This document shows positions 3,336-23,459 of a stretch of DNA of 64,000 bases, in pieces (position 1 is the stretch's first letter; every line of letters begins with the position of its first letter). The position numbers were made by a program, and so were the translations under genes. The stretch is from positions 5,696 through 69,695 of the forward strand of contig JAKLDJ010000006.1 in the NCBI GenBank assembly GCA_022703585.1, given 5' to 3'. The stretch comes from Candidatus Omnitrophota bacterium (lineage in GTDB: Bacteria > Omnitrophota > Gorgyraeia > Zapsychrales > JAKLDJ01). A model generated the notes under the pieces. It saw only the letters and a program-made list of their open reading frames with translations, was not told where the DNA came from and searched no databases.

Positions 3336-5057
3336 ATGATTGATTCAGTTGATTCGATATTAAAAGAAATAGAGAACACTTCTTTAGTTGAGCACCGGCA
3401 TCCGAATATTGAATTGAAATCCAGTTGGGATGTCGATTACGGAAGAAAAGTCTGTGGTCTTGCAAACAAAATCGGCTTCTCAAATGCTTGGCTTGTGATA
3501 GGCATGAAGGATGATGGAATTTTGGTAGGAAATAACGAGGCATGGGCTAAAAATTGTGAACAAGTAGTATCTCAACATGCCAACCAATTTCTGAATCCAA
3601 TTCAGGCGATTAAACAAATATCTTGTCATCAAATAAATCAATCTTGGATAGTCGTTATTCATGTTCAGCCGCCCGGTGCTGTTACATACTGGCAAGGCAT
3701 TCCTTACAAAGCTTCTGGCACAACTTTTGCCGCCATGATACCCGAAGAAATCATGCAGTTGACTGTATCTTTGCCCGGATTAGAAGATTTTTCCGCACAG
3801 GAATGGAAAGGGAGATGCGAAGCTTCTTTAGTCGCAGGTTTTGCAGAAACTGTCAGCACGAAACGCTCTGAGGCGCAATTTGTGGATTTATCGAAGAGAA
3901 CCGCCGATGATGTATTAACTCGTTTAGCAATTGTTGATAAAAATGTCGTTCGTATCTTGTTTGGAGATTTCAAATTTCGGATTGTTTATTACAATGATTC
4001 CAATGAGCCAGTTGAAAATTCTTCACAGCAAGGATTAATTCGCTTGCTGAGTAGCGAATTTATGCAATCAATTCAACGGTGGGGACTTAAAAATATTCAA
4101 ACAGAAAGTGGGGCGGAGATAACTTTAGAGTCTTACCCATCTAAAGCACTGCGGGAAGCTTTGGCCAACACGGTTGCGCATTGCGCTTATTTTGAAAGGC
4201 AAGGAGAGGTGGTTGTAGAAGTGTATCCCGCAAAGTTATCCATAAGTAATCTTTGTTTGCCTGAATCAGCGCATTTTGCTAATAAATGGTTTTCAAGAAG
4301 CAGAAATACCGTTAATCGTTTGTTGATGGAAACCTTGAGACTCGGCGGTTATGTTGATGAGTTAGGGAGAGGCAAGAATCTTATTTTCTGTGAAAGTATT
4401 AAGGCGGGATTAAAACCTCCCATTGTTGAAATTGAAAAAGCCGGACAATACAGCCGATGGAGATTGCAATTATTTGGAGCTTCCCGTGACCCAATCCAAT
4501 TAAAACTACTTCAACGGATTAAAGATTTATATAAGGACGAGTATAAAGCAATGGTTGCTTATGCTCTTGTTCTTTGGAGCAATTTACCTGTTTCAAGAAT
4601 TTCTCAATTTATCGATGGTGAATCAAGAGCATATTTTGAAGAAATTCTTCAAGATATTGATGGCCCGGTATTCTTTTATCAGAAAGAAGATAAACTTATC
4701 CTACATCGTTGGGTTAGGGTCTTGATGGAAGAAGGGAAGGATGCAAAGTCATTTACACTTGCGGAGGAAGAAGGGTTGAGGAATTTTGCTTATGAAATGT
4801 GCACAAAATATGAGCACGGATATATTACTCCTAAGGAATTGAGACGATTAGCGCATTTAGGCGAAAGCAACTCTGAGCAACAATTAAGCTCTGAATTGTT
4901 AAGTAAATGGCGGAAAGAAGGACATGTAGAATTTCTGAGGCGGGGGAAATACCGATTCAAAGAGCCGGTAAAACCACCGGAGGCTTGGTCAGCTCTCCTT
5001 GATAGGTTATTAAAAGATTCAACAAGTAGTGCATTAGGAAATACGGCCAATGAATAA
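3336..5057 (+). CDS. Schlafen-like AlbA_2 domain + HATPase_c_4 (RecG-C-terminal-like) + C-terminal winged-helix-like extension protein
   Basis: N-terminus: EHRHPNIELKSSWDV...VCGLANKIGFSNAWLVIGMKDDGILVG...VVIHVQPPGAVTYWQGIPYKASGTTFAAMIPEEIMQL matches the AlbA_2 (PF04326-type) pattern. Middle: ALREALANTVAHCAYFERQGEVVVEVYPAKLSISN...RNTVNRLLMETLRLGGYVDELGRGKNLIFCESIKAGLKPPIVE matches the HATPase_c_4 (PF13749-type) pattern. It starts 12 bp after the nuclease gene, so the two are probably one operon. Confidence 0.7.
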   Translation: MIDSVDSILKEIENTSLVEHRHPNIELKSSWDVDYGRKVCGLANKIGFSNAWLVIGMKDDGILVGNNEAWAKNCEQVVSQHANQFLNPIQAIKQISCHQINQSWIVVIHVQPPGAVTYWQGIPYKASGTTFAAMIPEEIMQLTVSLPGLEDFSAQEWKGRCEASLVAGFAETVSTKRSEAQFVDLSKRTADDVLTRLAIVDKNVVRILFGDFKFRIVYYNDSNEPVENSSQQGLIRLLSSEFMQSIQRWGLKNIQTESGAEITLESYPSKALREALANTVAHCAYFERQGEVVVEVYPAKLSISNLCLPESAHFANKWFSRSRNTVNRLLMETLRLGGYVDELGRGKNLIFCESIKAGLKPPIVEIEKAGQYSRWRLQLFGASRDPIQLKLLQRIKDLYKDEYKAMVAYALVLWSNLPVSRISQFIDGESRAYFEEILQDIDGPVFFYQKEDKLILHRWVRVLMEEGKDAKSFTLAEEEGLRNFAYEMCTKYEHGYITPKELRRLAHLGESNSEQQLSSELLSKWRKEGHVEFLRRGKYRFKEPVKPPEAWSALLDRLLKDSTSSALGNTANE

Positions 5058-5304
5058 GCAAGAAGCTGTTTACGCAATTGAACTGTTTTATGAAAAAGTC
5101 GATGAAGATTTAGCCTAAGTCCAAAGTAGGCCGAGGGTATCTTGAACGGCTTGACTCAAACCGTTCAAGGTGAGACGACTCGTCAGACCTTAAATTGAAA
5201 TTGCAAGCGACTCAACAAGCGAATCCGTAACATAGGCTTCTTCCGATACACAATAAGCCTTAAACTGCTCTAAGAAGTTCCTGAAATCGTCCGCTTGGGG
5301 GAGT

Positions 5305-5350
5305 ATTTAATAAAAAGGCCGCCTTGAAAGGCGGCCTTTTTATTAAATAG
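5305..5350. terminator. Bidirectional intrinsic terminator hairpin
   Basis: tatttaataaaaaGGCCGCCttgaaaGGCGGCCtttttattaaata: a GC stem flanked by an A-tract and a T-tract. Confidence 0.6.
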
Positions 5351-5460
5351 TTCCTCTGCGTTAAGAGGTACCCAGTACCCGAAGGGTGCGTTCGCCGGGA
5401 GCGAAGCGACCAGCACTTGTTACCCGGAGGGTAGAACAAGTGAGCCCTCGCGGGGGAGTT

Positions 5461-5506
5461 AATATTTAAAAGGGGCCACCCAAAGGGTGGCCCCTTTTAA
5501 ATATAA
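5461..5506. terminator. Bidirectional intrinsic terminator hairpin (end of repeat unit A)
   Basis: aaaaGGGGCCACCCaaaGGGTGGCCCCtttt. Confidence 0.55.
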
Positions 5507-5625
5507 TCCTTACGAGACGAAGAACCTGTCCGAAGGACGGGTTCGCTAGCGATCACGCCAAGGGCGGGGGAGCAGTCCCGAGGCGCAAAGCGACGAGGGA
5601 AGCCCTCGCGGGGGAGTCAAGTGAA

Positions 5626-5664
5626 ATAACAAGGGCCGCCTTTTAAGGCGGCCCTTGTTTGTAA
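5626..5664 (-). terminator. Intrinsic terminator downstream of the minus-strand 5684-6049 gene (end of repeat unit B)
   Basis: aacaaGGGCCGCCttttaaGGCGGCCCttgtt. Confidence 0.55.
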
Positions 5665-5683
5665 ATATCTATTGATAAACGGA

Positions 5684-6049
5684 CTACTTTTTCACTTTCT
5701 GTTCGTCACTCAAGAAGTGAGTCTGCACTCCTCTTTTAACGTATTCGGGCTGAATAACTGAGCCGTAGTTTTCGGGATTCGGAATCGGGCAGGTGACGAT
5801 GTCCCATACACCGGAAGCGCCGCGGGCTACTCCCCAAAACAGGCCTTTAAAAAGACCGACAACGATGCCGATACCGGCATTTTTGCTTTCCTTCCATTCG
5901 GTGTCGATATTCTGCGGTATTTCGAGTACAGCCGAAAGTACATTTGTTGCTCCGCGGGCCAATTTATCCTTCGGCTCACCGGCAGACGCGGATGTTACCA
6001 GACTGAAACACAACGCACCACACACCACCAACGCTACTAGAATCTTCAT
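5684..6049 (-). CDS. Small secreted protein, exosortase-system-associated TIGR04073-like family
   Basis: Signal peptide MKILVALVVCGALCFSLVTSASA, then KLARGATNVLSAVLEIPQNI...GIVVGLFKG...GVARGASGVWDIVTCP, which matches the R-G-x-N...E-I-P pattern I recall for that family. Confidence 0.45.
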   Translation of the reverse strand: MKILVALVVCGALCFSLVTSASAGEPKDKLARGATNVLSAVLEIPQNIDTEWKESKNAGIGIVVGLFKGLFWGVARGASGVWDIVTCPIPNPENYGSVIQPEYVKRGVQTHFLSDEQKVKK

Positions 6050-6204
6050 ATCTCCCTCCTTTTTAAAATAATTTAACAGAAATAAAAATTACCGTCAAGG
6101 AGTATTCTGTTATTTAAGCGAGAAGAGAATTTCTATTTTAAAGGCATCGTGTTATAATACATTCATGTTTTTGGTTAAGAAGAATAATTAAAAAGGAGAA
6201 CGAT

Positions 6205-6594
6205 ATGTCTAGAAAGATTGTTGCATTTGTCGGATTCGCTTTTCTGCTGCTTACTATTTACGGCTGTGTTGCGATTGTCGCCGGTGCGGTGGGGGGAGTA
6301 GGGACATCGGTGTGGCTTTCGGGCAAGTTGACCCAGGAATTTAATACTCCGTACGAGAAAACGATTAAGGCGGCCAGGTCGGCGCTGCAGTCGCTCAAAC
6401 TGAATATTACTAAAGAAACCAAGGACGATACGGTGGCCCAATTGCGCAGTGAGGATTCGAGCGGGAAGGACATCTGGGTCGATATCCGCAAGATTACCGA
6501 GACTTCGACCAGGGTGGAAGTCCGCGTGGGGGCAGTTAATTCGGACAAAGACGCGGCAACGACCATCCTTCAGAGAATCCAGAAGTATTTATAA
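6205..6594 (+). CDS. DUF3568-like lipoprotein
   Basis: AAAGGAGAA RBS. Signal peptide plus a lipobox (LLTIYGC). 129 aa with the overall DUF3568 pattern. A TATAAT -10 element sits at about 6154-6159. Confidence 0.55.
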   Translation: MSRKIVAFVGFAFLLLTIYGCVAIVAGAVGGVGTSVWLSGKLTQEFNTPYEKTIKAARSALQSLKLNITKETKDDTVAQLRSEDSSGKDIWVDIRKITETSTRVEVRVGAVNSDKDAATTILQRIQKYL

Positions 6595-6669
6595 GATAGC
6601 TCATATTGGTTTTTGCGGAAACGTGGTAAAGGTTTTTGTCCAGGCAAGCGTATAAACCGGAGATTAAAA

Positions 6670-6846
6670 ATGGTTGATATCGAGGCTTTGCGTTTGGCGT
6701 TATCGAAAGAGCAGGACGCCATAGAGATGTACCAAAAATTATTGCTGGAGCATCCTAATCTGGCGGATTTGATTAATTTCTTGATTACGGAAGAGCAGAA
6801 ACACAAGAAGCTGATAGAGAGAAAGATTACGGATTTAAGCCGATAG
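6670..6846 (+). CDS. Small ferritin-like / rubrerythrin-family protein
   Basis: ATG at 6670 (MVDIEALRLALSKEQDAIEMYQKLLLEHPNLADLINFLITEEQKHKKLIERKI): a short helical ferritin-like segment. A terminator follows at 6880-6918. Confidence 0.4.
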   Translation: MVDIEALRLALSKEQDAIEMYQKLLLEHPNLADLINFLITEEQKHKKLIERKITDLSR

Positions 6847-6879
6847 CAGGAAGCGAGCGAACGAAACGGTTCTGATTTG

Positions 6880-6918
6880 AAAAGGGGGCGCCCCGAAGGG
6901 GCGCCCCCTTTTTTCTCC
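6880..6918 (+). terminator. Intrinsic terminator
   Basis: GGGGGCGCCCCgaaGGGGCGCCCCCttttttct. Confidence 0.65.
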
Positions 6919-7032
6919 CCGCAGGGTTTTGAAGCGCATAATCTGCCGTAAAATACATTGCAAAAGATTTTTGATGAGATAGAATAAAAAAAACGCAACG
7001 GTTACCAAGTCTTCGTATCTAACCAAAGGAGC

Positions 7033-7368
7033 ATGTCCATGGCACAGGAGACCTTTATTGAGAAACAAGAGGAAAGTATCTCCATCCATATCTTTGCCGT
7101 ATCGGCTGCGCTGGTGGGGGTATGCCTGACCGTCATAGGTATTTTCAATATTGTTACGTCTCTTAAAAGAATGGAGACTTTTCTGGATGAGATGACTGCC
7201 GTCGATGCTGTTCTTTTTATGCTGGCCTGTATTTTTTCGTATATGGCGATTCGAACCAGGGAACGGCAGCCTAGGCTCCGTTTGGAAAAGATCGCAGACA
7301 GCGTGTTTTTGTCTGCGCTTTTTTTAATGGCTACAACCTGTGTGTTAATTGTTCTCCGATTGATCTAA
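7033..7368 (+). CDS. Hypothetical small membrane protein upstream of cstA
   Basis: 111 aa with 3-4 predicted hydrophobic helices. Ends 5 bp before the cstA start. Confidence 0.4.
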   Translation: MSMAQETFIEKQEESISIHIFAVSAALVGVCLTVIGIFNIVTSLKRMETFLDEMTAVDAVLFMLACIFSYMAIRTRERQPRLRLEKIADSVFLSALFLMATTCVLIVLRLI

Positions 7369-7372
7369 ACTC

Positions 7373-9169
7373 ATGCACGCCTTAACCCTGCTTACTGTCA
7401 GCTTGCTCGTATTTGCTCTAGCCTACCGGTTTTACGCGAAATTCATTATTACAAAAGTCCTTGTTTTTGACGACAAAAGACCGACGCCTGCCCATACCTT
7501 GCGCGACGGGCAGGATTATCACCCTACCAATAAATATGTTCTTTTTGGCCATCATTTTGCGGCAATTTCCGGGGCGGGGCCATTAGTCGGCCCGGTCCTG
7601 GCGGCGCAATTCGGATTTCTCCCCGGGTTTTTATGGATATTGATCGGCGCGGTCCTGGGAGGGGCGGTGCACGACATGGTGATTCTTTTTGCCTCGGTGA
7701 GGACTAAGGGGCTTTCATTAACCAGGCTGGCCCGAAAAAGTATTGGGCCGACGGCAGGGTTGGTGACAGGGATAGCCATCCTTTTTATCATTATTACGGC
7801 CTTGGCTGGGCTTGCCTTGGTCGTGGTCAATGCCCTTAATGAAAGTGCCTGGGCAACTTTTACCATCGTGATGACGATCCCGGCGGCTTTCTTGGTTGCC
7901 TTGTATATGTATAAACTACGCCCGGGAAAAATTATCGAGGCCTCGCTGCTGGGGATGGTTGTTGTTATGGCGGGGGTTGTATTCGGTGAGCCGTTATCAA
8001 GGTCGGGATTTGGGCAGTATTTCTTGCTTTCTAAACCCGCGCTTTCTGTTGCCTTGCCGGTGTACGGCTGTATTGCCTCAATCCTGCCGGTGTGGCTTTT
8101 GCTGTGCCCGCGCGATTATTTAAGTTCCTACATGAAAATCGGGACCATCGGTCTTTTAGCGGTTGGAATAGTCATTGTTAACCCTCAGCTTAAAATGCCG
8201 GCGGTGACAAGCTTCATACACGGCGGCGGGCCGATTATTCCGGGTAAGGTTTGGCCGTTTGTGTGCATAACCATTGCCTGCGGGGCGATTAGCGGCTTTC
8301 ACAGCTTGATCAGCTCGGGGACAACTCCCAAGATGATTAGCCGGGAATCGGAAATACGGATGATCGGTTTCGGGGCGATGCTTGTCGAGGCGGTTGTTTC
8401 TATCATGGCGTTGATTGCGGCTACCGTGCTTTTGCCGGGGGATTATTTTGCTATTAATGTGCCGGTGGAGGTATTTCATAAATTGGGATTAAGCACGGTG
8501 CATCTTGCGGAAATCGAAAAAATGACAGGCGAGGCCTTGGCCGGGCGCACCGGAGGCGCTGTTTCGTTGGCCGCGGGGATGTCGGTTATTTTATCGTCAA
8601 TCCCGGGAATGAAGCATCTCATGGGATATTGGTATCATTTTGCAATCATGTTTGAGGCGCTGTTTATTTTGACAACGGTGGATACCGGCACGCGGGTGGC
8701 CCGTTATATCCTTCAAGAACTTGCCAAGCTGGCAAGGCCCCGCTGGCAAGGGGCAAGCAGTTTGCCCGGGGTTATCACAACCAGCATTTTAATCAGTTTT
8801 CTCTGGGGATATTTAGTCTATAACGGAGATATTTCCACTATCTGGCCGATGTTTGGGGTGGCCAACCAGCTTTTGGCTACTCTGGCGCTATTAGTGGGGA
8901 CAATGTATATCCTCAAGCATTCCAAGCGATGGAGCTATGGATTGATCACATTTTTGCCGGCGTTATTTATGTTTGCAACAACCGTCGTTGCGGGAATATT
9001 AAATATTACGGGAAATTACTTACCCAAACACACCTTCCAGGGGAATCTCAATGCGGCCCTTTCGGGAATCATGATTATTCTCGTGGTTATCGTATTTCTT
9101 GAAACCTTAAAAAAGATGTATAGGCTGCGGATAACAGGCCTAGGCGTACCGAAAATAAAAGCAGCGTAA
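7373..9169 (+). CDS. cstA: Carbon starvation protein A (peptide transporter CstA family)
   Basis: FGHHFAAISGAGPLVGPVLAAQFGFLPGFLWILIGAVLGGAVHDMVILFASVR and the overall 598-aa polytopic membrane protein are typical of CstA. Confidence 0.9.
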   Translation: MHALTLLTVSLLVFALAYRFYAKFIITKVLVFDDKRPTPAHTLRDGQDYHPTNKYVLFGHHFAAISGAGPLVGPVLAAQFGFLPGFLWILIGAVLGGAVHDMVILFASVRTKGLSLTRLARKSIGPTAGLVTGIAILFIIITALAGLALVVVNALNESAWATFTIVMTIPAAFLVALYMYKLRPGKIIEASLLGMVVVMAGVVFGEPLSRSGFGQYFLLSKPALSVALPVYGCIASILPVWLLLCPRDYLSSYMKIGTIGLLAVGIVIVNPQLKMPAVTSFIHGGGPIIPGKVWPFVCITIACGAISGFHSLISSGTTPKMISRESEIRMIGFGAMLVEAVVSIMALIAATVLLPGDYFAINVPVEVFHKLGLSTVHLAEIEKMTGEALAGRTGGAVSLAAGMSVILSSIPGMKHLMGYWYHFAIMFEALFILTTVDTGTRVARYILQELAKLARPRWQGASSLPGVITTSILISFLWGYLVYNGDISTIWPMFGVANQLLATLALLVGTMYILKHSKRWSYGLITFLPALFMFATTVVAGILNITGNYLPKHTFQGNLNAALSGIMIILVVIVFLETLKKMYRLRITGLGVPKIKAA

Positions 9170-13043: not shown

Positions 13044-13088
13044 TGGCGGGCCAGCCGTCTTTAAAGACGGCTGGCCCGCTTTTAATTA
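13044..13088 (+). terminator. Intrinsic terminator
   Basis: GCGGGCCAGCCGTCTTTaaAGACGGCTGGCCCGCttttaatt. Confidence 0.65.
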
Positions 13089-13644: not shown

Positions 13645-13690
13645 CGAAAAGGGGCGTTTGGCCGGAAGGCCAAACGCCCCTTTTGTTTAA
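13645..13690. terminator. Bidirectional intrinsic terminator between convergent genes
   Basis: aaaaGGGGCGTTTGGCCggaaGGCCAAACGCCCCttttgttt. Confidence 0.65.
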
Positions 13691-16022: not shown

Positions 16023-16042
16023 TTTCTTTCAGGAAGGTGCCA

Positions 16043-17359
16043 ATGAGCGGCAAGTTAAATTCAGATAAGGAGATATCAACGCTTAATCATATTTTCCGGG
16101 CGCTGCACTATCGGAATTTTCGCCTATTTTTCTTCGGCCAGGGCGTATCGTTAGTCGGTACCTGGATACAGCAGATCGCTATGAGTTGGCTCGTTTATCG
16201 GCTGACTGGTTCGGCTTTTATTTTGGGTGTTGTTAGTTTCTCAAGCCAAATCCCCACTTTTCTTTTTAGTCCCTTTACCGGCGTCTTGGCGGACCGCTGG
16301 AACCGTCACCGCATGCTGCTGGTAACGCAAACCCTTTCAATGGTCCAGGCTCTTACTCTTGCGTTTTTAATATGGCAAGGGACCATTGCCGTGTGGCATA
16401 TTATTATTTTGGGATTTATGTTGGGGTGTATAAATTCTGTCGATATACCGGCGCGCCAGTCCTTCCTTATTGACATGGTTGAGCAAAAAGAACTTCTTGG
16501 TAATGCGATCGCCTTGAATTCTTTCATGTTCAATGGAGCAAGGTTAATCGGCCCTGTGATTGCGGGGGTTCTGATCACGCTTACCGGTGAGGGAGCGTGT
16601 TTTTTAATCAACGGCCTAAGTTTCCTGGCGGTTATTGCCTGTCTTTGGGCGATGGAAATCAAGAAACAGGAGGCAAGGTCAAAAAATGCCCACGCCTGGA
16701 GGGAATTACAGGAAGGCATCCGGTATACATTTGGTTTTGCACCTATCCGCTCGGTCTTAGCTCTTGTGGCTATGATAAGTTTAATGGGAGCGTCCTATGT
16801 CGTGCTTATGCCTGTTTTTGCCAAGAATATCCTTTACGGCGGGCCGAAAACCCTAGGATTCTTAATGGCCGCGGTCGGCGTGGGGGCTTTGATTGCAACG
16901 ATCTACCTTGCTTCACGCAGGAAAATATTGAAATTAGGGCCGATTATCCCGGTCGCGGCATCAATTTTTGCCTTTGGCTTGATTGCCTTCTCATTTTCGA
17001 GGGTTTTGTGGCTGTCGTTGTTTTTGCTGACGATCACAGGCTTCGGGTTTATGGTCCATATGGCAGCCAGTAACACTATTATCCAAACGATTGTCGAAGA
17101 CGATAAACGCGGTCGGGTTATGAGTTTTTATATGATGGCATTTATGGGGGTGGCGCCCATGGGTAGTCTGTTGGCGGGATTTTTGGCAAACATAATCGGG
17201 GCACCCAATGCCCTGGCCTTAGGCGGCGTGGCCTGTTTTTTGGCGGCATTGGCATTTGCTAGCCAAGTCCATGCCCTGCAAAGGGTTACCGGGCCGATCT
17301 ATGAAAAACTAAGCGCCGTACCCGAAGCCGTTACTGCTGTTGACACTGTAGCTGAATGA
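16043..17359 (+). CDS. MFS transporter
   Basis: 12-TM pattern, with GVLADRWNRHRMLL and other MFS signature loops. AGGAAGGTG RBS before the ATG at 16043. Confidence 0.8.
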   Translation: MSGKLNSDKEISTLNHIFRALHYRNFRLFFFGQGVSLVGTWIQQIAMSWLVYRLTGSAFILGVVSFSSQIPTFLFSPFTGVLADRWNRHRMLLVTQTLSMVQALTLAFLIWQGTIAVWHIIILGFMLGCINSVDIPARQSFLIDMVEQKELLGNAIALNSFMFNGARLIGPVIAGVLITLTGEGACFLINGLSFLAVIACLWAMEIKKQEARSKNAHAWRELQEGIRYTFGFAPIRSVLALVAMISLMGASYVVLMPVFAKNILYGGPKTLGFLMAAVGVGALIATIYLASRRKILKLGPIIPVAASIFAFGLIAFSFSRVLWLSLFLLTITGFGFMVHMAASNTIIQTIVEDDKRGRVMSFYMMAFMGVAPMGSLLAGFLANIIGAPNALALGGVACFLAALAFASQVHALQRVTGPIYEKLSAVPEAVTAVDTVAE

Positions 17360-17459
17360 GCTAAGGTAAGTCAAAATTCCCTTAGACCTGCCTAAAAATC
17401 AACGCTAAAAATATATTGACAGGAATTACTCTTCGCATTATCATGCTCCCTAATATGCT

Positions 17460-17745
17460 TAATCGATTTTGATACGTTCGACGGCGTCCGAACCCGCCTT
17501 AAGGGGTGGGGTTCGGACGCCGCTCAGTATCAACCCTGAGCAAACCCCGGGCTTTAGTCCGGGGAGCGTCGAATGGGTTGATTTCTGTGCCCTATAATTT
17601 ACAGAAATCAAATGAGAGCGGGGGATCCAGGAAATACGATCAATTAAGATCTTGGGGCGAATATGAAAATTAGGGCCCAACAGCCCGAGCCCGACAGCTA
17701 ACCCCGTCAGCCTAGTGTTGAGAGAGCAAGCCAAAGAAATCGCTC
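17460..17745 (+). ncRNA. Highly structured intergenic leader / candidate cis-regulatory RNA upstream of the amino-acid permease gene
   Basis: Nested inverted repeats: gacggcgtccgaaccc/gggttcggacgccg (17479-17522), tcaaccc...gggttga (17530-17590), ccccggg/ccgggg, atttctgt/acagaaat, and a weak hairpin plus T-run at 17719-17760. Confidence 0.3.
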
Positions 17746-17791
17746 TTTGGTTTTTTGCTTTTTAATGACCGCATCAATAAACGGCAATAAA

Positions 17792-19783
17792 ATGGAAAAT
17801 AAACCAAAAACATCTTTAGCGAAAAGAATCAAGACCGCCGTCATCGGACAAGCGCGCAGTCCGTTGGACCGGCATGTCTTTCACAGTCTTTCTCTGGTGG
17901 CTTTTTTTGCCTGGGTAGGCTTGGGCGCGGATGGGCTTTCGTCCTCTTGTTATGGCCCGGAGGAAGCCTTTTTAGCCCTGGGGAACTATCATTACTTGAG
18001 CATCTTTGTTGCTCTGGGAACGGTCCTCACGATATTCCTTATTAGCGCCAGCTATTCTCAGATTATTGAGCTTTTTCCGGCCGGAGGAGGAGGTTATTTA
18101 GTCGCCAGCAAGCTGCTGTCTCCGGGTGTAGGGATGGTTTCGGGTTGCGCGCTTTTGATTGATTACGTTTTTACTATAGCTATTTCTATTGCCAGCGGTT
18201 CGGATGCCTTGTTTAGCTTCCTTCCGGTCGAATGGCAGCCGTATAAAATCTATTTAGCTGTTTTTGGAGTTTTTCTGCTGACACTAATGAACATACGGGG
18301 GGTAAGGGAATCCGTTATTCCGCTTATTCCGATATTTCTCATTTTTGTCGGAACCCATCTTTTCGCGATTGTCTACGGAATATTTGTTCATGCGGGGAAT
18401 TTTCCCCACGTCTGGAATTCAACAGCTTCTGATATTCATCTTGCCGGAACAAATCTGGGCCTTTTTGGAATGATCTTCCTTATCTTGCGGGCCTACAGCA
18501 TGGGCGCGGGAACTTTTACGGGAATTGAGGCTGTTAGTAACGGTTTGCCTATTTTAAGAGATCCCAAGGTTGAAACCGGTAAAAAGACCATGCGCTATAT
18601 GTCTATTTCGCTCGCCGTCACCGTCCTGGGGCTTATGATTACGTATCTTCTTTTTGACGTTAATCGCGAAGCAGGAAAGACGTTAAACGCGGTTTTGATG
18701 GAAAATATTGTTTTGGGTTGGCCGAATCCCTATGGTTATTTCTTTATTCTGGTGACTTTGATTTCGGAAGCGATGATTTTATTTGTCGCTGCTCAAGCGG
18801 GATTTTTAGACGGTCCCCGTGTGTTGGCCAACATGGCTTCTGACCGCTGGTTTCCGACGAAATTTTCTTCACTAAGCGATCGTCTTGTTACCCAAAACGG
18901 ACTTTTACTTATGGGATTGGCTGCTTTGATGGCGATTGTCTTTACTCACGGGTCAGTCCACATCCTTGTTGTTCTTTACAGTATCAATGTCTTTATTACG
19001 TTTTGCCTTTCGCAGCTGGGGATGGTTCGTCATTGGTGGAATGTACGTGAAAGTGTCAGGACTTGGAAGAAAAAGATAGCGGTCAACGGCCTCGGGCTTA
19101 CCCTGACGTCATTTATTCTGATCTCGATTATTATAATAAAATTCAACCAAGGCGGGTGGATCACATTATTAATAACGGGAGCGCTGGTAGTGTTTGCGAT
19201 TATGGTCAAACGCCACTATCGCGAGACCGCGAAACTTTTAAATCGGTTAGATAGCCTGGTTCAAACAGCGTCTTCCGTGGGGAGCGTCGACTCTTCTGTA
19301 AAGACTGCCTGTGCATTTGACCCCGGAGCCAAGACAGCGGTTTTGCTGGTCAATGGATTTAACGGGTTAGGTTTACATACCTTATTTAACGTCATCCGGT
19401 TTTTTGGAAAAGAATTTAAGAATTTTGTATTTCTAGAGATAGGTGTTATTGATGCCGGAAATTTTAAAGGGGCACAGGAAGTCGACCGCCTTAAACTTCA
19501 GTCGGAAAAGGATATCGAGCGCTACGTTTCTTTTATGAACCATAGCGGTTATTATGCGCAAGGGTGTTGTGCTATCGGGATTGATGTTATTGAAGAGATC
19601 GAGAAAGTGTGCGCCCAAACCTTGGAACATTTCCCGGGAGCGGTGTTTTTCGGAGGCCAGCTAGTTTTCCCTCAGGAAACCGTATGGAACCGATGGTTGC
19701 ATAACTATACCGTTTTTGCCATACAGCGAAAGCTTTATCAAAAAGGAATTCCGTTTGTCATATTGCCTATTCGGGTTTACTAA
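17792..19783 (+). CDS. APC-superfamily amino acid permease with ~230-aa C-terminal cytoplasmic extension
   Basis: SQIIELFPAGGGGYLVASKLLSPGVGMVSGCALLIDYVFTIAISIASGSDALFSFLP and many TM segments. The start is placed at MENKPKT (17792); the ORF track begins at 17747. Confidence 0.7.
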   Translation: MENKPKTSLAKRIKTAVIGQARSPLDRHVFHSLSLVAFFAWVGLGADGLSSSCYGPEEAFLALGNYHYLSIFVALGTVLTIFLISASYSQIIELFPAGGGGYLVASKLLSPGVGMVSGCALLIDYVFTIAISIASGSDALFSFLPVEWQPYKIYLAVFGVFLLTLMNIRGVRESVIPLIPIFLIFVGTHLFAIVYGIFVHAGNFPHVWNSTASDIHLAGTNLGLFGMIFLILRAYSMGAGTFTGIEAVSNGLPILRDPKVETGKKTMRYMSISLAVTVLGLMITYLLFDVNREAGKTLNAVLMENIVLGWPNPYGYFFILVTLISEAMILFVAAQAGFLDGPRVLANMASDRWFPTKFSSLSDRLVTQNGLLLMGLAALMAIVFTHGSVHILVVLYSINVFITFCLSQLGMVRHWWNVRESVRTWKKKIAVNGLGLTLTSFILISIIIIKFNQGGWITLLITGALVVFAIMVKRHYRETAKLLNRLDSLVQTASSVGSVDSSVKTACAFDPGAKTAVLLVNGFNGLGLHTLFNVIRFFGKEFKNFVFLEIGVIDAGNFKGAQEVDRLKLQSEKDIERYVSFMNHSGYYAQGCCAIGIDVIEEIEKVCAQTLEHFPGAVFFGGQLVFPQETVWNRWLHNYTVFAIQRKLYQKGIPFVILPIRVY

Positions 19784-19868
19784 GGATGTGTTTTTTATTT
19801 CTTTGAGGGCGTATTGCGTAAAGGGTATTCTTACGGTAAAATAATCATTCACAGATAAGGAGTAGGGA

Positions 19869-20831
19869 ATGTTTTCACTGCAGTTAAGAATGTGGTTATT
19901 GGTAACACTTTTATTCGGCATCATCTATGCCATTGTGGTCGTTATCGGGACCTCGATGGGGGTAAACAATTTTTATTTTTACCTGGCCATTTCAGTCGGC
20001 ATGATGATTGTCCAGTATCTGATCGGGCCCAAACTCGTCGAATGGACCATGGGGGTTCGGTATACGACGAAAGAAGAGCGGCCGGATCTTTATCGCATGG
20101 TCGAGGATTTGTCCCAAAAGGCCCGGATACCGATGCCAAAAATCGGAATTTCGCAAGCCGGGATACCAAATGCCTTTGCATTTGGACGAGGGGTTCGTGA
20201 CGGGCGTGTTTGCGTTACCGAGGGAATCTTGAATTTGCTCAACGAAGAAGAACTTAAGGCAGTCTTAGGTCATGAAATTAGTCACCTTAAAAACCGCGAT
20301 GTTTTAACAATTACTCTGTTATCGGTTATTCCTATGGTGCTCTATCGGCTTGCCTGGAGCTTTTTGTTTTACGGGCGCAGGCGTGACGGACGGGACAATA
20401 CAATGCTGATCGGGCTGGCGGCGCTAATTTTTTATTTTATTACAAACCTCTTGGTGCTTTATGCCTCAAGGATACGGGAATATTTTGCCGATCGAGGTTC
20501 GGTCGCGCTGGGTAATAAACCTGCGGCACTTGCCTCGGCACTTTATAAGCTTGTTTACGGCTCTGCTCGTGTCGACAGGGAGTCGATCAGGGAAGCGGAG
20601 GGCTTGAAGGCATTTTTTGTTAATGACCCTTCTCGGGCGTCGCATGAGATAAGGGAGTTGGTTCAGCTGGACTTGGACCGCAGCGGTACGATTGACAGTT
20701 CTGAGCTTGCCTTATTACGGAATAAAACCATCCACGTGACATTTGCGGATAGGCTCATGGAACTTTTAAGCACACATCCGAATATGCTCAAGCGTATCCG
20801 GCATCTTTCTCAAACCGACATGGCCGGGTAA
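19869..20831 (+). CDS. htpX: M48-family zinc metalloprotease (HtpX-like) with C-terminal EF-hand-like loop
   Basis: HEISH zinc-binding motif (LGHEISHLKNRD) and four TM helices. The C-terminus contains DLDRSGTIDSSE, which matches the EF-hand loop consensus DxDx(D/S)GxIxxxE. Confidence 0.75.
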   Translation: MFSLQLRMWLLVTLLFGIIYAIVVVIGTSMGVNNFYFYLAISVGMMIVQYLIGPKLVEWTMGVRYTTKEERPDLYRMVEDLSQKARIPMPKIGISQAGIPNAFAFGRGVRDGRVCVTEGILNLLNEEELKAVLGHEISHLKNRDVLTITLLSVIPMVLYRLAWSFLFYGRRRDGRDNTMLIGLAALIFYFITNLLVLYASRIREYFADRGSVALGNKPAALASALYKLVYGSARVDRESIREAEGLKAFFVNDPSRASHEIRELVQLDLDRSGTIDSSELALLRNKTIHVTFADRLMELLSTHPNMLKRIRHLSQTDMAG

Positions 20832-20838
20832 GGATAGA

Positions 20839-21603
20839 ATGGACTTTTGGCATGCGATTGTTTTTGGGGTAGTGGAAGGCATCACGGAATTCCTTCCTGT
20901 ATCTTCGACGGGGCACTTGATTCTGACCGCTCGCGTTTTAAATTTCCCTCAAACCGAATTCCTTAAAAGCTTTGAAATTACCATACAGCTGGGGGCAATT
21001 CTTTCGGTTGTTGTCCTGTACGGACGGTCGTTACTCATTAACGGCGCGGTTATAAAAAAGGTGCTGGCTGCTTTTGTTCCTACGGCGGTGGCGGGGCTTG
21101 CTCTTTACAAGGTTGTTAAACAAACGTTGTTAGGAAGCGCGGATGTTGTTCTCTGGTCTTTGTTTTTAGGAGGGATATTCTTAATTATCTTTGATTTATT
21201 CCATCGGGAGCCTAGGGATGCAACGGAGGAGATCGCATGCATTTCCTATAAACAGGCGATTCTTATCGGGTTTTTCCAGGCGATTGCGATTATCCCCGGA
21301 GTGTCGCGTGCGGCTGCGACGATAATCGGAGGGTTGATTTTGGGGCTTCGTCGCAAGACAATCGTTGAATTCTCATTTCTTTTAGCTGTGCCGACAATGC
21401 TGGCGGCAACGGCGTTAGATTTATTTAAAAGTGCCGCATCTTTTTCGGCAGACCAGTTTGGATTTCTGGCGGTAGGATTTCTGACGTCATTTGTTGTCGC
21501 TCTGGCCAGCATTAAGTTTTTGTTGTATTTTATCAAGCGCCATAATTTTCTTAGTTTCGGTATTTATCGGATTGCAATAGCGTTGTTATTCTGGCTTCGA
21601 TAG
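20839..21603 (+). CDS. uppP: Undecaprenyl-diphosphate phosphatase
   Basis: MDFWHAIVFGVVEGITEFLPVSSTGHLIL...PGVSRSG-like motifs of BacA/UppP. Confidence 0.9.
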   Translation: MDFWHAIVFGVVEGITEFLPVSSTGHLILTARVLNFPQTEFLKSFEITIQLGAILSVVVLYGRSLLINGAVIKKVLAAFVPTAVAGLALYKVVKQTLLGSADVVLWSLFLGGIFLIIFDLFHREPRDATEEIACISYKQAILIGFFQAIAIIPGVSRAAATIIGGLILGLRRKTIVEFSFLLAVPTMLAATALDLFKSAASFSADQFGFLAVGFLTSFVVALASIKFLLYFIKRHNFLSFGIYRIAIALLFWLR

Positions 21604-21615
21604 GGAGGTGTGAGG

Positions 21616-23049
21616 ATGCGGAGGATAAGATTTGTTTTTTGGGTATGCCTTTTTCTTGCGTTAAACGTATTCAATACACCAGTATCGGCACAACAGGCCT
21701 GGCCTGAGGTCAAGCTTGAGGCCAGTGACCGCATTCTTATTCTGGCCCCGCATCCCGATGACGAGGTCTTGGGCTGTGGAGGCATCATCCAGAAGGCGGT
21801 GGCGTTGAAATTGCCGGTTCACATTGTTTTTTATACATATGGGGACAACAACCAATGGTCTTTTTTGGTCTATCGTAAACATCCGGTGCTTGTTCCGGGG
21901 GCAGTGAAAAAGATGGGGCTTATGAGGCATGATGAAGCCCTTGCCGCATCCAAGGCGCTGGGGGTGCCTGCTGAAAATCTGACATTTTTAGGGTATCCTG
22001 ATTTTGGGACGATGAGTATCTGGTACGCCCACTGGGGGAATCGTCCGGCGCTGCGTAGCATGCTGACTAGGGTCAATAAAGTTCCTTATGCGGGTGCTCT
22101 GCGGCCCGGTGCCCCGTATAAAGGAGAAGAGATTGTCAAAGATCTCACTGCAGTGTTGCGCGGTTTTAGGCCGACAAAGATTTTTGTTTCTCATCCGACC
22201 GACCATAATGGCGACCACCTGTCGCTGTATCTTTTTACCCGTGTAGCCCTTTGGAATTTAGGGGAGGATTTTACGCCGCAAATCTATCCCTATCTTATCC
22301 ATCGCGCTCACTGGCCTCATCCTAAGGGATACCGTCCTGAAGAGGCCTTAGTGCCGCCTGAACCTCTAAAAGAGGAAGTCTCTTGGTTTGTGTCGCCATT
22401 GAGCCCTGAGGAAATAAGCCGCAAGGAGGCCGCACTCAAGGCCCATCGGTCGCAGTATCGTTCCAGCGAGAAGTACCTGCTTTCTTTTGTGCGTGCTAAC
22501 GAGTTGTTCGGCGACTTTCCGGTGATTAAACTTAAAAAAAGCGAGACCGGAGAATCATCACTGTGGCCTGGGGCAAAGGAGTATTCTGTGCAGGTGCCCG
22601 AAGAGTTGACGGATTCGGAACGATCTGCCTTTGTCGGCCTTGAATGGCGTTTTGTGAGGCTGGAGGGAGACAATTTGGTTCTTTCTATCGAACTTTCTCG
22701 GCCGTTGGCAGAAGGTGTCGTTGCCTCGATTTACGCTTTTGGGTACCGCAGTGACCTCCCCTTTGGAAAAATGCCTAAACTGCACGTGAAGCTGGGTGTG
22801 ACCAACCACTCGATTTACGACCAGAATCGAAGATTGCCCGGTGATACAATTAAGGTGGTGCGTTCTGCGAAAGAAATCTCAATCAGTGTGCCGCTTGCGG
22901 TTCTTGGGGACCCTCAAAAGATTCTCACCAGTGCCAGGACGTATTTAAGCGAAATTCCATTAGGATGGGTTGCGTGGCGGGTATTGGAATTGCCCGGGCA
23001 GGAGAAGCCGTTGCCGGCAAAGAATCCGTTTTGGTTCTGGCCCCGTTAA
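21616..23049 (+). CDS. Secreted PIG-L family deacetylase (LmbE-like) with long C-terminal extension
   Basis: GGGAGG RBS. Signal peptide, then LILAPHPDDEVLGCGGIIQK...HPTDHNGDH...H, typical of PIG-L/LmbE. The ~230-aa C-terminal domain is unassigned. Confidence 0.7.
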   Translation: MRRIRFVFWVCLFLALNVFNTPVSAQQAWPEVKLEASDRILILAPHPDDEVLGCGGIIQKAVALKLPVHIVFYTYGDNNQWSFLVYRKHPVLVPGAVKKMGLMRHDEALAASKALGVPAENLTFLGYPDFGTMSIWYAHWGNRPALRSMLTRVNKVPYAGALRPGAPYKGEEIVKDLTAVLRGFRPTKIFVSHPTDHNGDHLSLYLFTRVALWNLGEDFTPQIYPYLIHRAHWPHPKGYRPEEALVPPEPLKEEVSWFVSPLSPEEISRKEAALKAHRSQYRSSEKYLLSFVRANELFGDFPVIKLKKSETGESSLWPGAKEYSVQVPEELTDSERSAFVGLEWRFVRLEGDNLVLSIELSRPLAEGVVASIYAFGYRSDLPFGKMPKLHVKLGVTNHSIYDQNRRLPGDTIKVVRSAKEISISVPLAVLGDPQKILTSARTYLSEIPLGWVAWRVLELPGQEKPLPAKNPFWFWPR

Positions 23050-23064
23050 ATGAGAAACTATTAT

Positions 23065-23093
23065 TTGACAAGTCAGGCAAATATATGTATAGT
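23065..23093 (+). promoter_or_regulatory. Sigma70-like promoter of cspA with ~120-nt 5' UTR
   Basis: TTGACA (23065-23070), a 17-nt spacer, then TATAGT (23088-23093). A long leader before the start is typical of cold-shock genes. Confidence 0.5.
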
Positions 23094-23212
23094 TTTGAAA
23101 AGTTAGTAGTAAATAAAGGGAAGAAAGGCAATGCTGCAGGAGAAGGTTGCCCTACGTTTTTAGGTCTTCTGCCGTTATTTACTACAATGTTCATGAAAGG
23201 AGGTAGTAAGTA

Positions 23213-23413
23213 ATGGTTAGAGGAAAAGTGAAGTGGTTTAATAACCAGAAGGGCTACGGGTTTATCACCCCGGAGTCAGGCAGCGATGTTTTTGTGCACC
23301 ATAGCGCGATTCAGGGTGAGGGCTACAAGTCGTTAGCGGAGGGCCAAGAGGTTGAATTTGAAGTCGAAAAAGGCCCCAAGGGCGAACAAGCCAAAAATGT
23401 TGTAAAATTATAA
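23213..23413 (+). CDS. cspA: Cold-shock protein (CspA family)
   Basis: [34 protein letters not shown]: the RNP1/RNP2 motifs. AAAGGAGGT RBS. Confidence 0.9.
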
Positions 23414-23421
23414 CCGGAAAC

Positions 23422-23459
23422 CCACGGGCCCGGCAACAAGTTGCCGGGCCCGTTTTGTT
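23422..23459 (+). terminator. Intrinsic terminator after cspA
   Basis: ACGGGCCCGGCAACaaGTTGCCGGGCCCGTtttgtt. Confidence 0.7.

Follow-up and report, generated by a model that had tools for sequence, protein, structure and literature searches.

The pairing of the ydaO/kimA riboswitch with its gene has been studied mainly in Firmicutes, and abundant c-di-AMP is a signal of K+ sufficiency in the bacteria studied. Members of this riboswitch class lie with an expression platform in 5' leaders of genes for K+ transport, osmoprotection, or the cell wall. The kimA (ydaO) gene of Bacillus subtilis is the prototype gene of the riboswitch with c-di-AMP-induced termination (PMC10636490; PMC9960051; PMC6488665). 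The crystallized aptamer, an RNA of 108 nt with two c-di-AMP molecules bound, starts with CGCUGAAC-GCGGGGGA and contains a pseudoknot in which the loop ACUCCUUCG pairs with the tail CGAAGGAG; an optional hairpin of the class is missing from this ligand-binding RNA (PMC5393176). We analyzed a DNA stretch of 64,000 nucleotides (the window; 64 kb) from an uncultured Candidatus Omnitrophota bacterium and found that the leader of a permease-type gene is very probably a c-di-AMP riboswitch of the ydaO/kimA class (RF00379), which would turn OFF a gene for a KimA-type K+ importer by terminating its transcription. With an RF00379 aptamer followed by a KimA homologue, the locus has the classic ydaO/kimA order, i.e., promoter, aptamer, intrinsic terminator, and gene, and its parts are as follows.

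17360-17791: intergenic gap of 432 nt, with an MFS_3 gene (16037-17359) on the left and a permease-type ORF (17792-19783) on the right
17416..17444 (+): promoter of sigma-70 type driving the kimA-like gene; -35 TTGACA at 17416-21, 17-nt spacer, -10 TATCAT at 17439-44
17457..17462 (+): 5' strand of aptamer helix P1 and junction; GCU at 17457-59, pairing with AGC at 17709-11 (3 bp), and UAA at 17460-62
17463..17617 (+): optional variable hairpin (Rfam model positions 18-29), 155 nt; its native tip is an 11-bp stem, 17578-88 / 17601-11, with loop 17589-17600
17474..17577 (+): lineage-specific insertion of 104 nt, or of 109 nt (17474-17582) if the right TTGAT is included; TTGAT stands at 17469-73 and 17578-82
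17618..17711 (+): conserved aptamer core; GCGGGG at 17618-23 pairs with CCCCGU at 17702-07, with internal hairpins and the P1 3' strand AGC at 17709-11
17716..17727 (+): 3' tail; UGUUG at 17716-20, candidate pseudoknot strand, and AGAGAGC at 17721-27, candidate anti-terminator strand
17728..17763 (+): intrinsic terminator (expression platform) from a terminator scan; stem AAGCCAAAGA / UCUUUGGUUU, loop AAUCGC, U-rich tract
17792..19783 (+): gene for a KimA-type K+/H+ symporter of 663 aa (phmmer against PDB 6S3K; Pfam AA_permease_2)
19869-20831, 20839-21603, and 21610-23049: htpX, uppP, and a PIG-L deacetylase gene, 3' of kimA

The Rfam model of the c-di-AMP riboswitch, RF00379, matched 17590-17729 on the plus strand over its full length (model positions 1-134), scoring 56.6 bits where the gathering score is 38 (E = 4.3e-12), and it was the sole Rfam family above the gathering threshold in the 64 kb. 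An earlier note on this DNA had proposed a riboswitch in the transporter leader, and this accords both with the match and with the presence of the aptamer and terminator 5' of orthologues. The same note had matched the leader to no known class; RF00379 does match, although recognition by eye was impossible. The amino-acid sensors that it had named as candidates (lysine, glycine, glutamine, and SAM riboswitches and the T-box) were without a match at E <= 10 in 16800-18300, and none of these models reached its gathering score in the whole window. Other Rfam families gave just hairpin noise in 16800-18300 at E <= 10 (miRNA precursors and a 20-nt HgcC fragment), and a tRNA/tmRNA scan of the 64-kb window returned no match. 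Folded as RNA, 17450-17800 had a minimum free energy of -136.3 kcal/mol, compared with -97.5 +/- 5.2 kcal/mol in dinucleotide shuffles (n=100); the z score was -7.5, and 0 of the 100 shuffles were as stable.

Of the 12 consensus positions, the promoter ahead of the kimA-like gene agrees at 11, and both hexamers are unchanged in L082, the closest relative. The segment from the promoter to P1 (17416-17470) shares 93% nucleotide identity with L082, compared with 50% for the DNA just upstream. Transcription is expected from the promoter position to start at about 17451-17453, approximately 7 nt past TATCAT. Given a near-consensus promoter at 17416-17444, the leader transcript likely covers only ~340 nt of the gap. 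The upstream MFS gene ends at 17359, and there is no canonical terminator ahead of the hairpins.

By homology, not by score, the true 5' end of the aptamer is assigned to GCUUAAU at 17457. A GCUUAAU or GCUGAAC motif lies at the equivalent place in L004, L007, L064, L082, and L091-93, and Rfam itself aligns a GCUUAAU-type motif to P1 and the junction in L064 and L091-93. Furthermore, the P1 pairing covaries in L015 (G-C/A-U) and includes a wobble in L083. Rfam's own placement of P1 in our leader, UACA (17600-03)/AGCC, has one of four positions paired and falls short of the proposed 5' strand; the proposed P1 (GCU/AGC) has 3 bp only, with strands 250 nt apart. Flags for non-canonical pairs in the covariance-model alignment were confined to P1 and the small optional hairpin, and the core also contains UUGGGGCGAAU and UAGGGC...GCCCGAGCCCGACAGCUAACC. 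By analogy with the crystallized RNA, we place a candidate pseudoknot of 5 bp between the loop CAACA at 17678-82 and UGUUG at 17716-20. Loop-tail complementarity amounts to 5 bp here, a length possible by chance, 4 in L082, 7 in L015, and 5 in L004, and the pairing is not clear in the sequences of L007, L002, and L091-93.

The same aptamer was found directly 5' of KimA orthologues in L002, L004, L007, L015, L064, L082, L083/84, and L091-93, with scores of 55-90 bits. The earlier note had proposed a comparison of orthologous leaders, and this comparison returned the same aptamer and terminator in ten leaders, with compensatory changes. RNAalifold applied to the ten leaders recovered the same helices (the long-range GCGGGG/CCCCGU, GGG/CCC, and two hairpins), and 8 pairs carried compensatory changes; MAFFT misaligns the variable hairpin among the leaders. 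Nucleotide identity to L082 was 96% in the aptamer core, 83% in the kimA coding sequence, and 50% in neutral upstream intergenic DNA. As a point against the reading, a motif search located the riboswitch in just 5 of 80 genome loci with an orthologue, a minority; the carriers of the kimA-riboswitch pairing include MAGs labelled Planctomycetia, Sedimentisphaerales, and Chlamydiae.

The gene at 17792-19783, which the earlier note had called an APC amino-acid permease, aligns by phmmer with B. subtilis KimA (PDB 6S3K) at E = 8.5e-60 over residues 24-487, and we correct that annotation in this Omnitrophota MAG to a K+ importer of the KimA type, very probably controlled by a c-di-AMP riboswitch. 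All eight functional residues (D36, Y43, D117, T121, S125, T230, E233, and Y377) are identical in the KimA alignment; D36, Y43, T121, S125, T230, and Y377 form the K+ site, D117 lies in the tunnel, and E233 takes part in proton coupling (PMC6994465). The protein resembles B. subtilis KimA (YdaO), a KUP family member of the APC superfamily, in transmembrane-domain homology and a cytoplasmic C-terminal domain, although it has 663 aa instead of 607 aa and the C-terminal domain alignment is weak. No NCBIfam equivalog matched the 17792-19783 protein. The product is a KimA-type K+ importer with predicted transport activity, and from the gene's identity the ligand class expected is that of second messengers (c-di-AMP) and not that of amino acids. 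The second member of the protein cluster, P0121, is the same protein called from an in-frame ATG at 17765. No terminator-like site was detected 3' of kimA ahead of 23424-23453, and htpX, uppP, and the PIG-L deacetylase gene may be co-transcribed with kimA. As a further point against the reading, a diadenylate cyclase (DAC domain) was absent from the ~46 window ORFs with lengths of 142 aa or more, and a supply of c-di-AMP in this organism is presumed.

All of the inverted repeats named in the earlier note were located where it had put them, and their dimensions needed revision in part. The stem CGGCGTCCGAACCC / GGGTTCGGACGCCG (17482-17495 / 17509-17522), described as 16 bp, is present, but its perfect length is 14 bp; the predicted fold extends inward to ~22 pairs with one bulge. 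The pair ATCAACCC / GGGTTGAT (17529-36 / 17575-82; 8 bp, perfect) encloses CCCCGGGCT / AGTCCGGGG (17545-53 / 17556-64). The stem noted as atttctgt/acagaaat also exists, but as a perfect stem of 11 bp (TTGATTTCTGT / ACAGAAATCAA; 17578-88 / 17601-11), exceeding the 8 bp claimed. The weak hairpin and T-run reported before the transporter start correspond to the terminator-like hairpin at 17728-17753 and TTTTTTGCTTTTT, which ends ~28 nt 5' of the ATG at 17792. As evidence for a sensor, the nested perfect repeats do not hold, since the 14-bp stem, the ATCAACCC/GGGTTGAT pair, and the CCCCGGG hairpin lie in a lineage-specific insertion missing from L082, and the 11-bp stem merely caps a hairpin that is variable and dispensable. 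The conserved sensor core at 17618-17711 sits 3' of these conspicuous hairpins and had been overlooked, as had the promoter.

The insertion contains the 14-bp stem, a CUCAG/CUGAG hairpin, a CCCCGGGC/GUCCGGGG hairpin, and the closing stem CGUUCGAC/GUCGAAUG, and its GC content is 64%, compared with 40% in the remaining leader. It is missing from the syntenic L082 locus as a clean 109-nt indel bounded by TTGAT repeats. With the insert taken out, the optional hairpin can be aligned with that of L082, from which it differs by two compensatory exchanges (G-C to A-U and U-A to C-G) and by a single U-A to U-G exchange. The hairpin here, as host of the insertion, reaches 155 nt, compared with 15-42 nt across ten relatives. 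Folded alone, the insertion forms a four-way junction of -68.8 kcal/mol, and a partition function of the full leader gave 38.7 expected pairs within the insertion against 0.42 to the outside. Its terminal inverted repeat is weak (ACGTTCGACG versus CCATTCGACG; 8 of 10 positions, 7 of them contiguous, TTCGACG/CGTCGAA), and its hairpins begin 7 nt from the left end and stop 13-18 nt from the right end.

Against Rfam with lax filters, the insertion gave a best E value of 0.2, generic hairpin (miRNA-precursor) noise. Since Rfam returned noise only across leader and insertion, we rejected a second known aptamer or ribozyme. Further copies were absent from the 64-kb window, 97 loci, and ~16 kb of extra flank (pattern search and BLAST, covering ~80 kb of this genome). 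Two viral-contig scans contained no homologues, and blastn against plasmids and phages yielded chance-level matches within coding genes only. A metagenome scan for CGTCCGAACCC-N8-20-GGGTTCGGACG gave four matches, all of them unrelated hairpins with different flanks; the source contig itself was not returned either, and thus the scan is uninformative about this genome. Neither tnpA (Y1 transposase) nor tnpB was present among the window ORFs, and our literature search found no reports of MITEs within riboswitch aptamers.

Most likely, a small mobile element of the non-autonomous kind left the insertion behind as a remnant, and both an IS200/IS605-type PATE and a MITE are possible sources. IS200/IS605 elements make no target-site duplication. 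PATEs are gene-less IS200/IS605 derivatives, and like them the insertion, a single instance, starts immediately 3' of TTGAT, has a hairpin near each end, and lacks coding capacity. ISDra2 has exactly this pentanucleotide, TTGAT, as its target and inserts on the 3' side of it (PMC2806898), and transposon-encoded end motifs include a target-like pentanucleotide such as that at the 3' edge of our insertion (PMC10055086). It differs from PATEs in having no second copy, tnpA, or tnpB in ~80 kb, its two end hairpins, left and right, show no clear likeness, and the TTGAT pair can be read equally well as a 5-bp target-site duplication; we therefore treat the PATE likeness as a lead, not as membership. 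MITE and small palindromic repeat families are defined by many dispersed copies. The insertion is similar to bacterial MITEs and small palindromic repeats (Correia/ERIC/REPIN-like) in its ~100 nt, its non-coding and self-complementary sequence, its short terminal inverted repeat, its 5-bp direct repeat at the junctions, and its intergenic transcribed site; it departs from MITEs in the single copy found, the shortness of the terminal repeat, and the lack of a known parent IS.

In the mechanism we propose, transcription would start ~7 nt past TATCAT, and the aptamer would open with GCU at 17457 and close with AGC at 17709-11, with 17618-17711 as the ligand-binding core. At high c-di-AMP, the bound aptamer and its 3'-tail pseudoknot would leave the hairpin at 17728-17753 and the U-tract to terminate transcription. 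At low c-di-AMP, the purine tail at 17721-27 would pair with the 3' arm of the terminator, and the polymerase would read into kimA and possibly into htpX-uppP-PIG-L. Ligand response and direction are presumed by analogy with the family. The terminator is 96% identical to that of L082, and an equivalent hairpin and U-tract stand 3' of the aptamer in 10 of 10 relatives. Our candidate anti-terminator would pair AGAGAGC (17721-27) with GCUCUUU (17742-48). Duplexes between tail and 3' arm of -8 to -10 kcal/mol occurred in six of ten relatives, each marginal against shuffles (fractions 0.03-0.11); the pairing was absent or no better than in shuffled tails in L004, L015, and L091, and L064 gave no value. 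An anti-terminator formed by the terminator 5' arm and the aptamer strand UCUUGG was dropped, being without covariation in L007 and L064. The insertion would be a secondary event, a self-contained structural passenger of 104-109 nt. Because it landed in a variable, dispensable hairpin, it probably rides along and leaves intact the switch, which we presume is still working.

Alternatively, the insertion may have disabled the switch. The leader would then be a pseudo-riboswitch in which the 104-nt element parts the P1 and junction nucleotides from the core and disturbs folding, with constitutive termination or read-through; kimA would be under protein-level regulation only, or under none. In favor of this reading, 250 nt lie between the P1 strands, which form 3 bp only, and the Rfam alignment fails to bridge the insertion. 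The perfect stems suggest that the insertion is recent, so that an intact aptamer sequence is no proof of retained function; with identical TTGAT copies as well, the core (96% to L082) may not yet have decayed. However, the host element is the only one of variable length (15 to 42 nt in relatives) and has no counterpart in the crystallized aptamer with its bound ligand, the insertion is predicted to fold on itself (38.7 against 0.42 pairs) and to leave a three-way junction in a peripheral helix, and promoter, core, terminator, and full-length ORF are all intact, and we consider a disabled switch rather unlikely. Much less probable is the recruitment of the four-way junction as a functional RNA in a composite regulator, whether as an additional sensor, as a platform for protein binding, or as a scaffold resembling a guide RNA. 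Its very stable, well-defined fold of three hairpins and a closing stem and its sense-orientation transcription from the kimA promoter would suit such a role, and the right ends of PATE-type elements reportedly often carry the scaffold of a TnpB guide (omega) RNA (PMC10055086). It is, though, a single instance, missing from L082, the closest relative, although gene order is shared there, without an Rfam match beyond noise at E = 0.2 or a homologue in the collections searched, and its stems, perfectly Watson-Crick paired and devoid of internal loops and of conserved unpaired nucleotides, have the look of a DNA palindrome, not of an evolved aptamer. We accordingly hold it to be very doubtful that a transcribed mobile-element RNA (e.g., of a TTGAT-targeting PATE with a guide-RNA-like right end) or a recruited protein- or ligand-binding module is coupled here to c-di-AMP sensing.

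The hairpins might also serve a neighbor, either as terminators of the MFS gene, an alternative raised in the earlier note, or, for the 11-bp palindrome (17578-17611), as the operator of a repressor at an internal promoter. The lack of a canonical terminator between the MFS gene end (17359) and the hairpins fits the former, and a TATAAT at 17593-98 within the palindrome loop fits the latter. Yet the hairpins lie 3' of the conserved 11/12 promoter, and they lack the A/T-run flanks found on the window's other strong palindromes. Termination of the MFS gene was rejected on account of position, the missing T-run, and the absence of the 14-bp hairpin region from L082, where the MFS gene is present. 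The operator and internal promoter were rejected because TATAAT lacks conservation (the loop reads CCGAUCUUAAG in L082) and the L082 stem is kept by a U-G wobble, which fits an RNA rather than a DNA palindrome; furthermore, there is no -35 element at proper spacing. Service to a neighbor is thus extremely improbable, and we retain the c-di-AMP riboswitch carrying a passenger as the preferred reading.

The class is already known and this member is new; the insertion is its unusual feature. The ydaO/kimA pairing thereby reaches uncultured Omnitrophota as well as MAGs with the labels Planctomycetia, Sedimentisphaerales, and Chlamydiae, which implies c-di-AMP control of potassium uptake in these organisms. 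Besides, the locus is a natural experiment, in which a large self-folding foreign element sits at the one site of the aptamer that is dispensable according to structural and comparative data. Provided that the switch is still functional, it gives a measure of insertion tolerance in riboswitch peripheries that is useful for engineering, and it would mean that small mobile elements are able to colonize structured leaders. If the composite reading were true, a mobile structured RNA and a riboswitch would have been joined naturally in one leader. The locus is also a trap for by-eye motif searches and for covariance models, since the model ends its match at the insertion.

Compared with the ydaO/yuaA motif (RF00379) of the B. 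subtilis kimA and ktrAB leaders, our leader shares the core nucleotides GCGGGGGA, UUGGGGCGAAU, UAGGG, and CCCGAGCCCGACAGCUAACCCCGU and the same helices with covariation, and it likewise lies 5' of a KimA homologue and ends in a terminator as in the OFF switches of B. subtilis and B. thuringiensis. It differs in its host, an uncultured Candidatus Omnitrophota bacterium and not a Firmicute or Actinobacterium, in a P1 of 3 bp only, in a short pseudoknot loop (6 nt), and in that ligand binding is predicted here. A further difference is the optional hairpin that separates the P1 junction from the GCGGGG strand, which spans 155 nt in this leader rather than 0-42 nt, and it is outsized because it carries a foreign four-way junction of 104-109 nt.

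All the inverted repeats on which an earlier note had based the suggestion of a structured, possibly riboswitch-bearing leader are present in the 432-nt intergenic region that separates the MFS_3 gene (16037-17359) from the permease gene. RNA from 17450 to 17800 folds at -136.3 kcal/mol, versus -97.5 +/- 5.2 kcal/mol for shuffles (z = -7.5); thus, the observation of a structured leader stands. Two repeats required remeasurement: the stem described as 16 bp is perfect and 14 bp long, and the one described as 8 bp extends to 11 bp. The reported weak hairpin and T-run correspond to a terminator-like site. The parts of the leader follow the order promoter, aptamer, terminator, and gene.

Features of the leader and the genes that follow it (window positions)
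17416-17444, near-consensus promoter TTGACA-17-TATCAT, 5' of the riboswitch element
17482-95 / 17509-22, perfect 14-bp stem
17529-36 / 17575-82, stem ATCAACCC / GGGTTGAT, enclosing CCCCGGGCT / AGTCCGGGG
17578-88 / 17601-11, perfect 11-bp stem TTGATTTCTGT / ACAGAAATCAA
17590-17729, + strand, c-di-AMP riboswitch RF00379
17728-17753, terminator-like site, then TTTTTTGCTTTTT
17792-19783, permease gene (ATG 17792)
19784-23453, htpX (M48 protease), uppP/bacA (undecaprenyl-diphosphatase), and a PIG-L family deacetylase gene

In an Rfam 15 scan of the leader region and the whole window, RF00379 was the sole family above its curated threshold, matching over the full model length with 56.6 bits (gathering score, 38) and an E value of 4e-12. 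The guess of a riboswitch was therefore correct, whereas the amino-acid, SAM, and T-box classes named as candidates gave no match even at an E value of ≤10.

KimA-like orthologues 48 to 67% identical to the query were taken from 80 genomes, and closer ones were taken from assemblies. The same riboswitch (55 to 90 bits) lies directly 5' of the KimA orthologue in loci L002 (labelled Planctomycetia), L004 (labelled Chlamydiae), L007 and L064 (Omnitrophota), L015 (Sedimentisphaerales), L082 (the closest relative), L083/84, L091, L092, and L093. A motif search found it in only 5 of the 80 genome loci and not in most other orthologue loci, indicating that the association is patchy. All 10 distinct relatives carry an intrinsic terminator right 3' of the aptamer. 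RNAalifold, run on the orthologous leaders without the Rfam reference, recovered the long-range GCGGGG/CCCCGU helix, a GGG/CCC helix, and two hairpins, with compensatory changes at 8 pairs, so the covariation sought among permease orthologues is present.

The terminator stem CCAAAGAG/CUCUUUGG is nearly identical in the window (17728-17753) and in L082, L083, L004, L091, and L092/93, and the MAGs with these riboswitch leaders are assigned to different phyla. Free sequence drift is the norm for terminator stems. The shared stem suggests either horizontal spread of a leader-plus-gene cassette or sequence constraint from alternative pairing. Upstream of another KimA orthologue (L085; 71% identical), there is no aptamer, and a CCAAAGAG...CTCTTTGG hairpin with a T-run (about 2925-2985), its stem almost as in the riboswitch terminators, stands just before the ATG; either it was left behind when the aptamer was lost or it has its own role. 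In L002, an nhaA-I (Na+ riboswitch) RNA (6974-7034; 48 bits) occurs about 2 kb downstream of the KimA orthologue, which places two ion-homeostasis riboswitches within 4.3 kb. Besides, a GC-rich, c-di-AMP-aptamer-like sequence with the core motifs is found in L053 (about 640-800; MAG labelled Akkermansia sp.). It is located 2.2 kb upstream of the KimA orthologue and therefore presumably controls another gene.

The downstream protein, previously read as an amino-acid permease, has Pfam matches to generic amino-acid-permease models only. Its sole solved-structure match is the K+ transporter KimA of Bacillus subtilis (6S3K; E = 8.5e-60, residues 24-487), and D36, Y43, D117, T121, S125, T230, E233, and Y377 are all identical in the alignment. 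A structural study of KimA attributes K+ binding, the cytoplasmic tunnel, and proton coupling to these eight residues (PMC6994465). The substrate proposed earlier was thus wrong. An in-frame ATG at 17765, directly 3' of the terminator U-tract, yields the 672-aa database version of the protein (P0121), and no Shine-Dalgarno-like sequence precedes this ATG or ATG 17792. Because L082 keeps ATG 17792 and lacks ATG 17765, the 663-aa KimA-like form starting at 17792 is, judging from this conservation, the likelier product. No terminator-like site was found between kimA and htpX, uppP, and the PIG-L gene, the first strong terminator being at 23424-23453; hence, these envelope-related genes may share c-di-AMP control.

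Alignment with L082, whose permease is 90% identical in amino-acid sequence and whose gene order is the same (DUF3047, hypothetical, MFS, and permease), spans the promoter, the first 20 nt of the transcript, the aptamer core, and the terminator. Nucleotide identity is 93% from the promoter to P1, the aptamer closing helix, and 96% both in the aptamer core and in the tail plus terminator, versus 83% in the kimA coding sequence and 50% in the spacer from the MFS stop to the -35 box, which implies stronger constraint on sensor, promoter, and terminator than on the protein. About 109 nt (17474-17582) are missing from L082. This insert has a GC content of 64%, versus 40% in the remaining leader, and is bordered on both sides by TTGAT (17469-73 and 17578-82). 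Folded alone, it forms a four-way junction of a closing stem and three hairpins (-68.8 kcal/mol), and in the whole-leader partition function its expected pairs are 38.7 internal and 0.42 external. When it is deleted, the flanks form a continuous 12- to 13-bp hairpin that aligns with the L082 hairpin, the differences being two compensatory changes and one wobble. Thus, the segment was inserted secondarily into an RNA hairpin that already existed. It largely explains the hairpins listed in the earlier note, which had misjudged the structures that matter.

The RF00379 alignment in the window begins at 17590 and leaves P1 unpaired. GCUUAAU at 17457-63 precedes the hairpin also in L004, L007, L064, and L082 (GCUGAAC in L091-93), and in L064 and L091-93 Rfam aligns this motif to the P1 5' strand and junction, followed by the hairpin with 26- to 32-nt insertions. 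The RNA crystallised with two c-di-AMP molecules starts CGCUGAAC and continues directly with GCGGGGGA, with no hairpin between (PMC5393176). This homology and the hairpin-free RNA place the aptamer at about 17457 to 17711, with a candidate P1 (GCU/AGC) of only 3 bp assigned by homology. The optional hairpin measures 154 to 155 nt in the window versus 15 to 42 nt in ten relatives; by sequence comparison, then, the insert appears to sit in the aptamer's one dispensable, length-variable element.

As to its origin, the insert fits a MITE, a small non-autonomous palindromic element; the TTGAT repeats would be its 5-bp target-site duplication, and its terminal inverted repeat would be weak (8/10). 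It also fits a PATE, a gene-less IS200/IS605 derivative: ISDra2 inserts 3' of this very pentanucleotide, TTGAT (PMC2806898), and such elements carry subterminal hairpins and a target-like motif at one end (PMC10055086). With a single copy in about 80 kb of genome, both are no more than candidate origins. No homologue was found in Rfam, viral contigs, plasmids, or phages, no further copy in the window or in the loci retrieved, and no transposase in the 64-kb window; four metagenome matches were unrelated hairpins. Alternatively, L082 lost the segment through recombination between the TTGAT repeats, although this would still imply an earlier insertion, because the hairpins are short and continuous in more distant relatives.

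Elsewhere in the window, a 2.3-kb ORF-poor stretch (5057-7373), with only small ORFs in sister-contig gene calls, holds four palindromes that are perfect or nearly so (5299-5354, 5462-5504, 5628-5659, and 6880-6912), the second and fourth with clear A/T-rich outer ends. Similar palindromes occur at 13046-13079 and 13647-13684, and several look like bidirectional terminators. Sister contigs that match the window with 100% identity over 13.3 kb supply the DNA left of position 1 (L095, 1-7495; L096, 1-7355). Both carry a restriction-modification pair (ResIII/DEAD endonuclease and N6_N4 methyltransferase) just outside the window, followed by a serine recombinase in one strain and dnaX-recR in the other; this region is a strain-variable island.

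If the direction of control follows the riboswitch family, c-di-AMP binding would favour termination, and the K+ importer would be made only at low c-di-AMP. The tail UGUUG (17716-20) could form the family's pseudoknot with the loop CAACA (17678-82), and AGAGAGC (17721-27) may act as an anti-terminator by pairing with GCUCUUU (17742-48), the terminator loop end and 3' arm. Between tail and arm, 6 of 10 relatives have comparable duplexes of -8 to -10 kcal/mol with differing sequences (e.g., GGGAAUAC/GUAUUCUU in L007), each marginal versus shuffles. We consider it fairly probable that the switch still works despite the insert.

In B. subtilis kimA, formerly ydaO and the namesake of the RF00379 class, c-di-AMP binding causes premature termination (PMC10636490; PMC9960051), and the same OFF mechanism has been demonstrated in vitro for the Bacillus thuringiensis kdp leader (PMC6488665). 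The riboswitch described here likewise precedes a KimA homologue. Thus, the leader belongs to a well-known riboswitch class and shows its prototypical gene context, in Omnitrophota, a phylum where this class has not been studied before; its foreign, self-folding insert is a curiosity of interest to specialists in riboswitches and mobile elements rather than a new kind of system.
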